Position numbers and translations under genes: made by a program | Notes under the pieces: model-generated | Seen by the model: only the letters and a program-made list of their open reading frames with translations | Told to the model about the DNA's origin: nothing | The model's database searches: none | Source of the DNA: Candidatus Obscuribacteraceae bacterium | GTDB lineage: Bacteria > Cyanobacteriota > Vampirovibrionia > Obscuribacterales > Obscuribacteraceae | DNA: 64,000 bases | NCBI GenBank assembly: GCA_044226015.1 | Contig: JBGAHS010000001.1 | Coordinates: 160,001-224,000 of the forward strand | Direction: 5' to 3' | Shown here: in pieces, positions 9,057 through 14,357 of the stretch | Numbering within the stretch: the first letter of the stretch is position 1 | How the letters are laid out: the number at the start of each line of letters is the position of its first letter

Positions 9057-10490
9057 ATGCTTCTTAGCATTAGCACGACTCATCGTCCGGCTACGGACCT
9101 TGGATTTCTTCTACTAAAAAATCCAAACAATCTAAATAGTTTTGAACTCAGCTTTGGGAAGGCTCATGTTTTCTTTCCCGAGGCAAGTGACGAAATTTGT
9201 ACAGCTTGCCTTCTTCTTGATGTGGACAGCGTAACGCTGGTTCGCGGAAAGGGGCAGCAAGACGGAATTGAGCAATATGTGAATGACCGACCATATGTGG
9301 CGTCATCATTTATGAGTGTTGCGATAGCACAGGTCTTTGGTACCGCTCTTGGTGGCAGAACGAAACATAAGCCTGAGCTTGTGGATGTTCCTATTCCGCT
9401 TAAGGCCTCTATCAGTGCTCTGCCCTGTCGCGGGGGTGAGGCGCTATTAAAGAGCCTCTTTGAGCCGCTAGGTTACGAGATTTCGGCCCAGCGCTTGCCG
9501 CTCGACGAGAAGTTTCCTGAGTGGGGCGAGAGCCGCTACTATGCACTTGAACTTACTCAAACTCTGCCTTTGAAAGATCTGTTAAAACACCTGTATGTGC
9601 TTATTCCTGTTCTTGATGACGAGAAGCACTATTTTGTGGGTCAAGAAGAGGTTGATAAGCTTTTGCGTCATGGTGGCAGCTGGCTTGCAACTCACCCTGC
9701 AAAAGAGTTGATAAGCAAGCGCTATCTAAATCATAAATACAGTTTGGCGCAACTCGCCTTAAACCAGCTTGCTGAGCAAGGGGAAGACTGCTCTGAGGAA
9801 CAAGTTGAGCAGAACAATCAGGAAGAAGAAGTTGAAAAACCCTTGAGTCTAAATGAACAACGCATTCAAAGTATATTGAATTGCTTATTGGAGAATTCCG
9901 TGCGCAGCGTAATTGATATGGGCTGCGGGGAAGGGCGCTATCTAAAGGCTTTGCTCGAGCAAAAAGAATTCGACAAAGTTGCAGGAGTCGATGTGTCTCC
10001 TCGAGTGCTCGAACGCGCCGCAGACCGACTGCGCCTTGACCGCATGCCTGAACGGAAACGCGAGCGGCTTAATTTGTTTCAAGGCTCGTTAGTTTATAAG
10101 GATGATCGGCTTAGCGATTATGACGCAGCTATTTGCGTAGAGGTAATCGAGCACATGGACTTGCCGCGTTTACCCTCATTTGAAAAGATGCTGTTTCAAT
10201 ACAGTCGTCCGAAAATTGCGATAGTTACAACGCCGAATGTCGAATACAACGCAAAGTTTGAAACATTACCGGCTGGCAAAATGCGTCATGCTGACCATCG
10301 ATTTGAATGGACCCGCGCAGAATTCGAGTCGTGGGCAAGTCGAGTGGCGAGTACCTTTGGATATTCGGTTAGCTTTAATACGATCGGTCCGGTTGACGAG
10401 CTTTTGGGGGCGCCCACGCAAATGGCGGTGTTCAAAATTTTGAGTGAGGAAGAGCTTCTTGAAGCAGTCTCAGAAAGGAGGGCAAAATGA
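9057..10490 (+). CDS. hen1: 3'-terminal RNA ribose 2'-O-methyltransferase Hen1
   Basis: N-terminal MLLSISTTHRPATDLGFLL..YVNDRPY ligase-activating domain; DMGCGEG, EVIEH and RHADHRFEW methyltransferase motifs. Confidence 0.95.
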   Translation: MLLSISTTHRPATDLGFLLLKNPNNLNSFELSFGKAHVFFPEASDEICTACLLLDVDSVTLVRGKGQQDGIEQYVNDRPYVASSFMSVAIAQVFGTALGGRTKHKPELVDVPIPLKASISALPCRGGEALLKSLFEPLGYEISAQRLPLDEKFPEWGESRYYALELTQTLPLKDLLKHLYVLIPVLDDEKHYFVGQEEVDKLLRHGGSWLATHPAKELISKRYLNHKYSLAQLALNQLAEQGEDCSEEQVEQNNQEEEVEKPLSLNEQRIQSILNCLLENSVRSVIDMGCGEGRYLKALLEQKEFDKVAGVDVSPRVLERAADRLRLDRMPERKRERLNLFQGSLVYKDDRLSDYDAAICVEVIEHMDLPRLPSFEKMLFQYSRPKIAIVTTPNVEYNAKFETLPAGKMRHADHRFEWTRAEFESWASRVASTFGYSVSFNTIGPVDELLGAPTQMAVFKILSEEELLEAVSERRAK

Positions 10491-13048
10491 AAATTGAATT
10501 GCCAGAACTTTCACTGGTCGTTTTGATTGGCTGTTCTGGAAGCGGAAAGTCAACCTTTGGAAAGAAGCACTTCAAGGGCAGCGAAGTTGTTTCGTCTGAC
10601 TTTTGCAGATACATGGTGGCTGATGATGAGAACGATCAGTCTGCATCTCGACCTGCTTTTGAGTTGCTCCACTATATTGTGGGCAAGCGTCTCGATGCTG
10701 GCAGATTGACTGTTATTGACGCCACCAGTGTTCAAGCTGAAGACCGCAAGCAACTTATCGAGCTTGCAAAAGCGCACAATTGCCTGCCAATTGCCATTGT
10801 ATTCAATATTGACGAGGAAGTCTGTCAGCAGAGAAACTTACAACGTCCCGACAGAAATTTTGGACCGCATGTAATCAGGCGCCAAAATAAACTGCTGCAG
10901 CGGTCTTTTAGAGGCATCAGAAAAGAAGGTTTCAATAGAACTTTCATTTTTAATTCGCCTGAGGAAGTTGAGCAGGCTGAGCTTGTACGGACTCCGCTCT
11001 GGAACAATAAAAAAACTGAGCACGGACCTTTCGATATCATCGGCGATATACACGGATGTTTCGATGAGACTATATTGTTGTTGGAGAAGTTGGGTTACAA
11101 GCTTAGCAACGATGAGTCAGACCCACTTCGGTATAATGCCAGTCATCCAGATGGTCGCTGCGTAGTTTTCGTCGGAGACCTGGTTGATAGAGGTCCGAAA
11201 ACGCCAGATGTGTTGCGTCTTGTGATGAATATGGTGAATACAGGAAACGCGCTATGCGTTGCTGGCAATCACGACGTGAAGTTGATGCGCAAGCTGTCTG
11301 GTAAGAACGTGAATATGACTCATGGATTGCTTGAGTCATGGCAGCAACTTGAGTCTGAAACTGATGAGTTCAAGTCTACTGCTTGTAAGTTTTTAGATGC
11401 GTTGATCAGTCACTATGTTTTCGATGATGGTAACCTGGTTGTTGCTCACGCCGGTCTAAAAGAAGCATTTCAGGGGCGCAGCTCAGGGCGAGTTCGTGAG
11501 TTTTGTCTTTATGGTGAAACCACAGGTGAAACTGACGAATATGGTTTGCCTGTTCGATATAACTGGGCAGCCGATTATCGTGGACGGGCAATAGTTGTTT
11601 ATGGACACACTCCTGTTCCCAGTGCGGCTTGGGTGAATAATACAATTTGCCTCGACACTGGTTGCGTATTTGGTGGCGAGCTGACGGCGCTGCGCTACCC
11701 TGAAAGAGAATTGGTTTCGGTTCCTGCGGCTCGCATGTATTATGAGCCAATGCGCCCTCTGGCTCATGTCGAGTCAGGTCCGCACGGCTACCGTACAGAA
11801 GATGATATGCTCAGCATCAATGATGTTTGCGGCAAAAAAATCATAAACACGCGCTTACAAAAATCGGTTACAGTGCGCGAGCAAAATGCTGCCGCTGCGC
11901 TTGAAGTGATGAGCCGATTTGCCATTAACCCGCGTTGGTTAGTCTATCTGCCTCCAACAATGTCTCCCTGCGGCACATCAAAGGTGCCCGGTTTTCTAGA
12001 GCGTCCCGAGGAAGCCCTAGATTACTACGTGCAGATGGGACAGAGTCGCATTATCTGTGAAGAGAAGCATATGGGTTCTCGCGCAATAGTAGTTGTATGC
12101 AAGGACGAAGCCAGCGCCCAAAAACGATTTGGAGTCGCTGATGAGGGCATTGGTGTTTGTTATACACGAACGGGTCGGCAATTCTTTTCTGATGAGAAGC
12201 TCGCTCAGCAGTTTCTCACTAGAATTCGCGACGCTGCCAATGAGTCGGGCTTTTGGGAAGAGTTTCAGACCGATTGGATGCTTCTTGATTGTGAGCTGAT
12301 GCCCTGGTCAATGAAAGCCCAAGAGCTGATTCGCAGGCAATACGCTTCGACTGGTGCAGCTGCTAGCAGGTCAATGATTGACGCTCAATCAGCCTTAGCA
12401 AAGGCTGGCAGCCGTGGCGTGCAGTTGGCAGACTTGCAAGATTCTTTCCGTGCGCGAACCGCTATGGTCGAGAAGTATGTGAATGCTTATAGAAGGTATT
12501 GCTGGAATGTGGATTCGCTCAGCGATGTGAAACTTGCACCGTTCCATCTTTTAGCGACCGAGGGTGTCGCGCATACGGACAAACCGCACATATGGCACCT
12601 TTCAGCTATCGCGAAATTGGCGCGTGCGGAGGGGGAGGAGATGATTATCTCGACGCCGTTTCGCGAAATTGATCTTTTGTCCTCAGACTCTGTAATTGAG
12701 GTTATTCGCTGGTGGGAGGGGCTCACCGCTGGTGGTGGCGAGGGTATGGTTGTAAAACCCTATGAATTTGTTGCGCATGGTCCGAAAGGTTATTTGCAGC
12801 CTGCCGTAAAGTGTCGTGGTAGCGAGTACTTGCGCATAATTTATGGTCCCGAATACGATGATGAAAGGTATCTAGAGCGCTTGCGCCATCGCGGGTTGTC
12901 TACAAAGAGATCTCTTGCGATGCGAGAGTTCTCGCTGGGTGTGGAAGCTGTTGAGCGGTTCGTTTTGCGAGAGCCTTTGTATCGCGTACATGAGTGTGTG
13001 TTTGCAGTTCTTGCAATGGAAAGCGAGCCCGTCGACCCGCGTTTGTAG
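10487..13048 (+). CDS. pnkp: Polynucleotide kinase-phosphatase-ligase Pnkp
   Basis: Kinase GCSGSGKST; phosphoesterase GDIHG/GDLVDRG/GNHD; ligase EEKHMGSR, EGMVVKP, VKCRG; ends VDPRL; ATGA overlap with hen1. Confidence 0.95.
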   Translation: MKIELPELSLVVLIGCSGSGKSTFGKKHFKGSEVVSSDFCRYMVADDENDQSASRPAFELLHYIVGKRLDAGRLTVIDATSVQAEDRKQLIELAKAHNCLPIAIVFNIDEEVCQQRNLQRPDRNFGPHVIRRQNKLLQRSFRGIRKEGFNRTFIFNSPEEVEQAELVRTPLWNNKKTEHGPFDIIGDIHGCFDETILLLEKLGYKLSNDESDPLRYNASHPDGRCVVFVGDLVDRGPKTPDVLRLVMNMVNTGNALCVAGNHDVKLMRKLSGKNVNMTHGLLESWQQLESETDEFKSTACKFLDALISHYVFDDGNLVVAHAGLKEAFQGRSSGRVREFCLYGETTGETDEYGLPVRYNWAADYRGRAIVVYGHTPVPSAAWVNNTICLDTGCVFGGELTALRYPERELVSVPAARMYYEPMRPLAHVESGPHGYRTEDDMLSINDVCGKKIINTRLQKSVTVREQNAAAALEVMSRFAINPRWLVYLPPTMSPCGTSKVPGFLERPEEALDYYVQMGQSRIICEEKHMGSRAIVVVCKDEASAQKRFGVADEGIGVCYTRTGRQFFSDEKLAQQFLTRIRDAANESGFWEEFQTDWMLLDCELMPWSMKAQELIRRQYASTGAAASRSMIDAQSALAKAGSRGVQLADLQDSFRARTAMVEKYVNAYRRYCWNVDSLSDVKLAPFHLLATEGVAHTDKPHIWHLSAIAKLARAEGEEMIISTPFREIDLLSSDSVIEVIRWWEGLTAGGGEGMVVKPYEFVAHGPKGYLQPAVKCRGSEYLRIIYGPEYDDERYLERLRHRGLSTKRSLAMREFSLGVEAVERFVLREPLYRVHECVFAVLAMESEPVDPRL

Positions 13049-13125
13049 GGCGCGAAGATATTTTTGAAAACTGCAACGGTACCGGTGGAGTTCTCTGGTT
13101 TTTCTGGTTTTTCTGCTTTTTCAAA

Positions 13126-14085
13126 TCACCACGCGCGCTGGCGAAGCTGCGGGGAATGTGGGTCGGTAACCGGAATGGCTGTCTGCCATCCAATGCCATT
13201 CATGTGTCCGAGGCGGACGTGATCATGATGGCTCAGCCTCTGTGGGCGATAGCTGCCGATGACGGACTTCACTGCATTCTCGAGTTCATACTTGCTTGCG
13301 CCAGGTCCAAGTTGCACCCTGGCTGTGGCTTCTGTGCCAAATAGATTAGGTTCCACAAAAACGTAACCAGAGGAGATATTCGCGCCCCTAACCGTCTTCA
13401 AGTCGTTTGCGCTTGCGCTACTGTAGACCATTTTTCCGATGAATTGGTCTGACCAGGCCACTGGTGCCAGAGCCTGCGACAGGCGTTGCCGCTCTGCTTC
13501 TGTACGTCCCACCACTATTGCCAGTGGTCGTTTATCGCAAGCGGCGACGTCGATAGCCAATCGAAGCGTATCAACTGCGGGAAGTGCGTCTGGCTGAGCG
13601 CCTCTGCCAGCGCTAACATAATGTCTGGAAATATCGTTCATCGCCCGCGCCATGTCGGCCGAGTCGCGAAAAACGTGTATTGGGCTGCGTCCGCCCAATA
13701 GTATTGGTCTTGCCCATGGGTCAAGAATAGCGAATACAGTGTTCTCTAGCGGTGCATCAGGTCTCCATAATTGCTTCAAAACTTGGGCTTCGCTTTCGCT
13801 TTCATACGTCATCATCCGCACGCAGACGAAGTTTCTGGAAGCATTTATCACATCAGTTTGCGTCAGGAACCTCCCGTCCGTGTCTTGCTTGCCTGGTCAC
13901 CACATGCCAGGTACGCCGCCGCATTGCGGTGCGGCTGCCATAAGTAGAATTGGTTTACCGGTTTTGGCTGCTTGTTCCTGGGCTTGCTTCCAGGTTGGAA
14001 TCCAGCCAATGCCCTCGCTCGCCTCTGCGGCTGAGCAGCAAAACAAGAACATGACACACAGGAACTGCAGGACTTTGACTCTCAT
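13126..14085 (-). CDS. Probable selenoprotein: exported thioredoxin-fold protein, 319 aa, in-frame UGA (13897-13899) read as Sec
   Basis: ORFs 13897-14085 and 13126-13851 share a frame and only one TGA separates them: ..GKPILLMAAAPQCGGVPGMW-U-PGKQDTDGRFLTQTDVINASRNFVCVR..; AGAGGTGG RBS before 14085. Confidence 0.7.
13864..13876 (-). promoter_or_regulatory. Candidate bacterial SECIS apical hairpin
   Basis: CGGGA-GGU-UCCUG starting 21 nt after the UGA, with a G-containing loop. Confidence 0.45.
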
Positions 14086-14357
14086 AGGTCGCCACCTCTG
14101 ATTACTTCTCTAACCAGTATAGGAATTCATTGTGGATTAAAAATGGAGGATTTGGTCGCCCAAAGTCGGCTTGAGCATTAAACCCGCTACGTAGTTTCCC
14201 ATTCAGTGCTAAACTATCAGACGCTGGGCGATCCCCAAGATGATGTAAAATTCAGCTTTTCGGGGAGATCCGCCGGGAACATTTTCGGTGGGAAGAACAC
14301 CATTGTATACAGTGCACTGTGCATTTAAGATTCAGCCATCAGTTAGAGATTCCCGCG

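Follow-up and report, generated by a model that had tools for sequence, protein, structure and literature searches.

A predicted exported selenoprotein family of the thioredoxin fold, with an invariant cysteine ahead of the UGA-encoded residue, in Obscuribacterales-like bacteria

Background

Selenoproteins most commonly have a thioredoxin fold, and new selenoprotein families turn up regularly. The locus considered here raises the question of whether two adjacent open reading frames in the genome of Candidatus Obscuribacteraceae bacterium form a single gene of this kind, interrupted by a UGA codon that is read as selenocysteine (Sec). The frames lie in a 64,000-nucleotide stretch of contig JBGAHS010000001.1, called the window below; an earlier note on this DNA had joined them across a TGA and proposed an exported oxidoreductase with Sec at its active site. 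The proposal is supported by the residue column of homologues, by a hairpin locked at the level of codons and by the Sec machinery of the genome, and on these sequence-based grounds we infer that UGA63 is almost certainly decoded as selenocysteine, with selenium incorporated at this position. Our fuller reading, to which we assign a probability of roughly 0.6, is that the gene would encode an exported selenol redox enzyme of two thioredoxin domains, recoded at UGA63 and working through a cycle between Sec63 and Cys55.

A single frame with one internal UGA

The gene occupies positions 13126..14085 of the window on the reverse strand and reads as one frame of 319 codons followed by a terminal TGA, with a sole internal stop, TGA63 (13897..13899, reverse strand). 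The 62-aa frame (14085-13897) and the 241-aa frame (13851-13126) share this frame with the TGA alone between them, and the read-through translation, which runs K-P-I-L-L-M-A-A-A-P-Q-C55-G-G-V-P-G-M-W-U63-P-G-K66 around the codon, agrees with the one given earlier. TGA63 is covered without difference by the contigs of three of four runs, while the fourth run ends short of it; because contigs of three studies carry the same codon, TGA63 is not an assembly error.

The good ribosome-binding site that had been claimed for the 5' frame was recovered as a Shine-Dalgarno-like AGAGGTGG, 6 nt ahead of the ATG (14092..14099, reverse strand); no sigma-70-like promoter was found for the gene, and no RNA data set was listed as carrying it, a result without bearing on expression. 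The first start of the 3' frame is a GTG, as had been described, and it is not the only one, there being in-frame ATGs at codons 91-92. The fragment stored as public protein P0002 is 229 aa long, which fits a start at these ATGs.

The UGA column in homologues

Matches to the gene were found in 10 of 61 related genomes, nine of them (that of the window included) full length. All nine full-length copies have one TGA at column 63, at 52–70% identity among the relatives, and the possibility that the halves might occur elsewhere as independent genes in other frames was answered by an in-frame arrangement in eight of eight full-length relatives. A larger set of 92 loci was made up of these nine, three from a homologue search and the best 80 of 344 confirmed stretches from a metagenome scan; it includes near-duplicates and comprises 73 distinct 54-nt stretches. 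Down to 36% identity, column 63 is TGA in 91 of the 92 loci, TGC in one (L110) and TAA or TAG in none, a ratio biased towards Sec forms because the loci were ranked by likeness to the window protein. Protein searches retrieved a further view of the column: among 195 proteins, 120 hold the whole motif, with Cys in 119 and Leu in one (P0122), and the aligned proteins without the whole motif are mostly pieces that begin after column 63. TAA, TAG or a non-Cys residue such as Trp had been named as the signs of a nonsense mutation; what the column holds is TGA or Cys, with no TAA, TAG or Trp and a single Leu in 120 proteins.

These counts bear directly on the reading in which the locus comprises two independent genes or is a pseudogene disrupted by a nonsense mutation. 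That reading can draw on the public databases, where the 3' half is stored as a separate protein for many members, just as the earlier note had expected standard annotation to split the gene. It is hardly credible given that the stop falls inside one thioredoxin domain, between the first strand and the active-site helix, that TAA and TAG are absent from all 92 loci, and that full-length Cys forms exist. Taken as Sec-type genes, the 344 metagenome stretches would represent a widespread selenoprotein family that annotation splits in two.

The closest named homologues belong to Candidatus Obscuribacterales and Melainabacteria. Cys forms with names are few and come from Planctomycetota, and the nearest Atlas clusters of one Cys homologue (P0063) are mostly Planctomycetota as well. 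Among 401 genomes sampled from the phylum no further full-length copy was found; this search gave only two Trx7 proteins, both with a canonical CxxC.

Several single members deserve mention. P0122, which is full length, has its Leu at the Sec column, possibly through a one-base change from TGA, and L064 and L086 have a second stop within the match. The tenth related genome has a 5'-broken remnant (L031, G009:C18:42296-45502) that matches query residues 77-146 only, in a genome with SelA and tRNA-Sec; L031 was excluded from the codon count as a fragment that does not extend to column 63.

A conserved hairpin downstream of the UGA

A predicted SECIS hairpin with apical AGGUU lies inside the coding sequence (13862..13878, reverse strand), as judged from pairing, covariation and codon locking across the family. 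The hairpin begins at the 21st nucleotide past the UGA, where the earlier note had placed it (CGGGA-GGU-UCCUG, 13876-13864); its loop begins with G, the UGA-to-loop spacing is 25 nt, and the apical loops seen in the family are AGUUU, AGGUU and AGUUA. The bacterial SECIS consensus model, as set out in PMC13188914, has an apical G and a loop 16-37 nt past the UGA, with both of which the window hairpin agrees. The energy of the window hairpin is -5.7 kcal/mol as a local stem and -8.5 kcal/mol over 60 nt, to be compared with the rule of -7.5 or lower in the bSECIS model, and places it among the weakest of the family (mean -10.7 kcal/mol, range -15.4 to -5.5). Folded alone it is not above chance: z lies at 0.25 to 0.88, and 111 and 162 out of 200 shuffled sequences fold equally well. 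Its reality rests on conservation across the family, not on its own energy.

That conservation is pronounced. Five stem pairs are kept in at least 71 of the 72 distinct Sec-type sequences, in which codon usage is locked along the stem. AGG is the only codon used for Arg at +8 (49 of 49) and at +9 (14 of 14), Ser at +9 is always AGT (58 of 58), Phe at +10 is TTC with one exception (58 of 59), and Leu at +11 is mostly CTG (65 of 71). The flanking Pro, Gly and Val codons use all four endings on both sides of the stem, and the single TGC gene has no stem. Eleven close sequences share a stem of eight pairs that is 91% paired, and its covariation score of 0.255 was reached by none of 500 shuffles (slid pairings gave 0.02-0.12), a score that kinship among these related sequences can inflate. 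The codon locking is the stronger evidence for an RNA signal of the two.

The arrangement is like fdhF-type recoding in E. coli in having an in-frame UGA, a stem within the ORF, a G in the small apical loop and selABCD in the genome; it differs in the loop (AGGUU/AGUUU/AGUUA) and in a window hairpin that, taken as a local stem, is weaker than the energy rule of the model. When the family loop motif was scanned over the 325,547 TGA sites of the genome, 51 matches were obtained, by inspection mostly chance. Ranked first and second are a gene resembling SelW, over the cut-off of TIGR02174, and one resembling ArsC, over the cut-off of NF041106. Both belong to known families and have the same hairpin class as the window gene, the first being of CxxU type with its TGA at G000:C1:284037 (reverse strand; L118) and the second of UxxC type with its TGA at G000:C11:321099 (reverse strand; L119).

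Selenocysteine machinery

The absence of Sec machinery had been named as grounds for giving up the proposal. SelA, SelB, SelD and tRNA-Sec (selC) are all present in the genome, each over its curated cut-off, and the tRNA has the anticodon UCA. SelA and tRNA-Sec accompany the gene in eight of eight relatives that have it in full, and SelA is found in 33 of the 61 genomes searched, 27 of the 36 from the same family. The SelA matches document Sec use in relatives of Cyanobacteria, a group which a 2022 review (PMC9312934), in a listing that concerned ~600 early genomes, has as being without the Sec trait.

The machinery is also what bears on a further alternative, that a changed genetic code or a suppressor leads to UGA being read as Cys or Trp. 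In its favour, the Cys homologues indicate that sulfur is sufficient in some lineages. However, TGA is an ordinary stop elsewhere in the genome: the window gene itself ends in TGA, and of all nine full-length copies examined three have this terminal codon. The tRNA-Sec is the only UCA tRNA found, W62 is encoded by TGG in 74 of 74 cases, and the hairpin goes with the TGA state, all of which makes a code change very improbable.

The four machinery genes are scattered and form no single operon (selA at G000:C3:259385, selB at C11:827067, selD at C9:631362 and selC at C11:1300243). There is no stop inside the SelD match, nor inside the matches of four molybdopterin-family genes of the genome.

Two predicted thioredoxin domains

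The protein begins with a predicted signal peptide (residues 1-22, ending in A-E-A; 14020..14085, reverse strand), recognised from its hydrophobic N-terminal stretch. Of the 75 loci that could be scored, 71 have a hydrophobic leader, the other 17 of the 92 having too little upstream sequence or no ATG, and these observations favour the export signal that had been claimed; the protein is thus predicted to be exported.

An AF2 model of the mature chain, built with 83 sequences, has a pLDDT of 94 and predicts two tandem thioredoxin domains. The first is of Trx7/DsbH/DsbD-gamma type (residues ~23-163; 13597..14019, reverse strand): model residues 1-141 match DsbH (2ju5) with Z 11.7 and rmsd 2.8 over 117 aligned residues, and DsbD-gamma (1vrs) with Z 10.9 and rmsd 2.8 over 110. 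PF13899 matches weakly in 24 of 24 members (17.2 bits for the window protein, cut-off 27), and a sequence search of the PDB gave nothing significant (best E 0.043). The Thioredoxin_7-type fold recognised in the earlier note is thereby upheld by the model, while the second thioredoxin domain had been missed. This domain (residues ~167-278; 13252..13587, reverse strand) is without a redox motif, and model residues 145-256 match thioredoxins with Z 8.6-8.8 and rmsd 2.8-3.0 over ~100 aligned residues. We do not claim a domain duplication, because no homology between the two domains was detected at the sequence level. The chain ends in a helix and a conserved G-x-x-W-x-T-x-x-P-V-T-D-P tail (13129..13251, reverse strand), as seen in the model and from conservation. 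A single-sequence model of the Cys homologue P0063 reached a pLDDT of 37.

The architecture varies around this core, as seen in L058, L063, L083, L086, P0122, P0123 and P0168: in some family members an extra helical or EF-hand-like domain follows the signal peptide and precedes the thioredoxin domain, and many have Gly/Pro-rich C-terminal tails.

The active site

In the alignment to the two canonical CxxC Trx7 proteins of the phylum (L116 and L117), W-U-P-G-K-Q-x-x-D is matched to W-C-G-Y-C-R-K-M-D, preceded by a gap of eight residues; one alignment moves the W across the gap, and the Cys falls on U63 in every alignment. Sec63 is therefore aligned to the first, attacking Cys of CxxC, and the active-site helix of the model begins at P64. 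The earlier description of the motif as C-x7-U in place of CxxU holds for the spacing; its frame of reference does not, Sec being at the first CxxC position (U-P-G-K) and C55 coming from an inserted loop. The insert is evident from the same alignment, and in the model it forms a GG turn flanked by two short strands. Cys55 (13921..13923, reverse strand), a candidate resolving Cys, is Cys in 94 of 94 distinct sequences. The C/U-x-x-C motif of Thioredoxin_7/DsbH-like oxidoreductases is replaced by U-P-G-K, with Lys66 (13888..13890, reverse strand) at the second CxxC cysteine position in 93 of 94. A cis-proline is typical of dithiol-disulfide oxidoreductases and is missing from this family: the position before strand 3 is Thr in 90 of 94 and Ser in four. 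This residue, Thr116, was identified by sequence register against the G-F-P-T of L116 and L117 and follows Asn115, which is invariant in 94 of 94 (Asn115-Thr116, 13738..13743, reverse strand). Also invariant in all 94 are Cys88 on strand 2 (13822..13824, reverse strand) and P53, G60, W62, P64, R90, Y94, E95, E99 and R133, whereas C183 is kept in only 55.

In the mechanism that we propose, SelB and tRNA-Sec, directed by the hairpin 3' of UGA63, would insert Sec, and the chain would be exported to perform selenol redox work in the cell envelope. Sec63, placed where the active-site helix begins, very probably acts as the nucleophile. It would attack a substrate with oxidised sulfur, either a disulfide or a sulfenic acid, on an envelope protein or small molecule, and Lys66, in place of the second Cys, would help to hold Sec63 as the selenolate. 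Cys55 on the inserted hairpin would then resolve the intermediate into a Se-S bond to be recycled by an envelope reductant. Domain 2 would be non-catalytic and bind a substrate or partner, in the manner of the a-b pair of protein disulfide isomerases. We assign Cys55 its role because it is invariant in Sec and Cys forms and the helix Cys is lost, and we favour this assignment by a little over even odds. Counter-evidence comes from the missing cis-proline and from a sister family, described below, that has Sec at the same position and no C55 equivalent, so that a related fold manages without C55. With Cys versions available in nature, tests of the mechanism need no selenium recoding.

The invariance of Cys55 and Cys88 in an exported protein could alternatively reflect a structural disulfide. 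In one such reading, the protein would be a real selenoprotein of single-selenol type, reducing peroxides or sulfoxides like glutathione peroxidases or 1-Cys peroxiredoxins, with an outside thiol as the resolving agent and C55 in a structural role, for example bonded to C88. Glutathione peroxidases also have Sec at the first position, with a catalytic Asn in the corresponding loop. The Lys in place of the second CxxC Cys, the Thr in place of cis-Pro, the invariant Asn directly before Thr116 and the sister family, with a C88 equivalent and no C55, are all in keeping with such an enzyme. Against it, the top structural matches are DsbH, DsbD-gamma and Trx7 proteins, not peroxidases, the UxxT motif is absent (UxxK is found), and no GPx family appeared in Pfam or NCBIfam scans; the retention of C88 where C55 is absent moreover argues against an obligate C55-C88 bond. 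We regard this single-selenol chemistry as unlikely, if worth serious consideration.

Loss of the cis-proline has a second possible meaning, this residue being the one that guards thioredoxin sites against metal binding. C55 and Sec63 of a real selenoprotein might then form, in the envelope, a binding site for soft metals or metalloids (Hg, As, Cu) without redox cycling, and there is precedent in the metal-binding roles through Cys or Sec that were proposed for other exported families in bioRxiv 10.1101/2022.07.06.499078. The position of Sec, exactly on that of the thioredoxin nucleophile, and the neighbourhood comparison, in which no metal-resistance or transport gene came out as conserved, speak against metal binding, and we consider it unlikely, more so than the single-selenol chemistry, yet a live alternative. 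A redox cycle between Sec63 and Cys55 is the reading that we retain; it would extend the rules of thioredoxin-fold chemistry to a site with Sec first, Lys for the second Cys and a candidate resolving Cys in a loop.

Comparison with known families

No NCBIfam cut-off was approached by any of 83 aligned members (best E 2e-4; the scores available are 16-20 bits, for cut-offs of 300-350). The Trx7/PDZ (seleno)protein family NF041199 is similar in its Trx7-type N-terminal domain with Sec and matches weakly in 15 of the 83 members (residues 27-93 of the window protein, 15.9 bits, cut-off 300). It differs in its second domain, which is PDZ in NF041199 and a thioredoxin fold in the window protein (Pfam scans found no PDZ in this protein or in members), and in its motif, given as CxxU in Table 1 of PMC13188914, as opposed to U-P-G-K with a Cys in an upstream insert. 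NF041382 and NF041383 (VPGUxxT) are likewise Trx7-like selenoproteins without CxxC and with V-P-G shortly ahead of Sec; weak matches occur in 3 and 4 of the 83 members, the best at 17.3 bits against a cut-off of 350. In the window motif, C-x2-V-P-G-x-W-U-P-G-K, two residues separate G from U and Lys stands at +3, unlike V-P-G-U-x-x-T.

With DsbH (2ju5), DsbD-gamma (1vrs) and PF13899 the window protein has in common the fold of domain 1, an export signal and W-x-nucleophile at the helix start, and it departs from them in having no second helix Cys and no cis-Pro, a Cys-bearing 8-residue insert, Sec and a second thioredoxin domain. The top Foldseek hits (E ~1e-5), PDI a-b fragments, ERp44 and QSOX1 Trx1-Trx2, are similar in that a catalytic thioredoxin domain is followed by a non-catalytic one; the arrangement of the domains differs (TM ~0.27, rmsd 15-19) at 7-14% identity, so that the likeness is an analogy of architecture only.

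Table 1 of PMC13188914, which covers 119 families (2026), has neither a C-x7-U motif nor a UxxK family of thioredoxin fold, a full-text literature search on the motif and on the taxa together with selenocysteine gave nothing on the family, and no matching sequence was found in four supplement files of the GOS study (PMC2398784). The planctomycete candidates in Table S9 of PMC4807772 are identified solely through their IMG ids; they include three split genes, two labelled 'thioredoxin' and one 'hypothetical', and these three may be members of the present family. The literature consulted further included PMC12013277, PMC5029168, PMC13745706, PMC1976440 and the BSepDB paper (PMC13326102). The family is absent from the catalogues compared (NCBIfam and Table 1 of PMC13188914); the chance that it is listed elsewhere, for example in CDD, PANTHER or BSepDB, is about one in four.

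Probable sister selenoprotein genes and evolution

The family profile also found two paralogous genes in the same genome, each of which combines a signal peptide and a Trx7-like start with a TGA at the same structural position. They lie at G000:C6:197102-198133 (reverse strand; L120, L122) and G000:C8:156740-157837 (reverse strand; L121), with the in-frame TGA in H-M-L-G-x-x-x-G-K-T-U-S-A-G-N. A search with one of the two gave matches to this sister family in 31 of the 61 genomes, often in several copies; in 25 of 25 loci examined the codon is TGA and the equivalent of C88 is Cys, and a conserved hairpin is present that is unlike that of the window family, with the loop CGUGUC. These paralogues are probably a second uncatalogued selenoprotein family. 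A third type of exported Trx7-like gene (L147; G000:C8:472403-473521, forward strand) has Q-M-L-G-R-L-D-Q-E-F-C-U-T-N, a hairpin with the loop CGUGUU and no more than a weak match to VPGUxxT, at 15.8 bits for a cut-off of 275. None of these three sister Trx7-like TGA genes reaches an NCBIfam cut-off.

A FastTree tree was computed from 81 rows, out of 105 before a 90% redundancy filter, with the Sec/Cys column masked and no outgroup. Cys forms occur in it at two places held apart by well-supported branches, a 14-row clade and P0123. P0123 is the sister of the Sec-type L058, with a support of 99, and is surrounded by further Sec rows; its sequence probably records a Sec-to-Cys change. Such changes are called rare in bacteria in PMC13188914, and P0123 would put a probable reversion of this kind on record. 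The direction of change in the 14-row clade depends on the position of the root, and outgroup rooting of the family tree placed no root, the branches being saturated.

As a tentative synthesis, held at somewhat less than even odds, the family may represent a new design of thioredoxin active site, C-x7-U-x2-K without a cis-Pro, whose resolving Cys has left the helix and now lies on an inserted hairpin. The family would belong to a larger radiation, so far uncatalogued, of exported selenoproteins of Trx7-like type, with three families and four genes in this genome. These proteins would be the chief users of the Sec machinery in non-photosynthetic cyanobacteria of the Obscuribacterales-like kind; Sec would be the ancestral state, and Cys would have replaced it on two occasions.

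Genomic neighbourhood

Comparison of the neighbourhoods of the 92 loci revealed no family-wide partner gene that would point to a substrate or an electron donor; the largest groups, named by eye, are sulfatase-like (15), low-complexity ORFs (15) and kinase-like ORFs (9). In the window, a gene pair for a Hen1 methyltransferase and the RNA-repair protein Pnkp (9057-13048, forward strand) is convergent with the selenoprotein gene. This pair, which is not a conserved neighbour, and an upstream PepSY-TM gene were considered and rejected as parts of the selenoprotein system.

Just beyond the stop of the gene lies a 45-60 nt intergenic repeat (window 13047-13106), where depth is high. The repeat gives 63 BLAST hits across the genome, and many of these are arranged head to tail, spaced 51-70 nt apart. 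Elsewhere in the genome, G000:C10:356333-358584 holds a dense array of 18 tRNA genes, like those on mobile elements.
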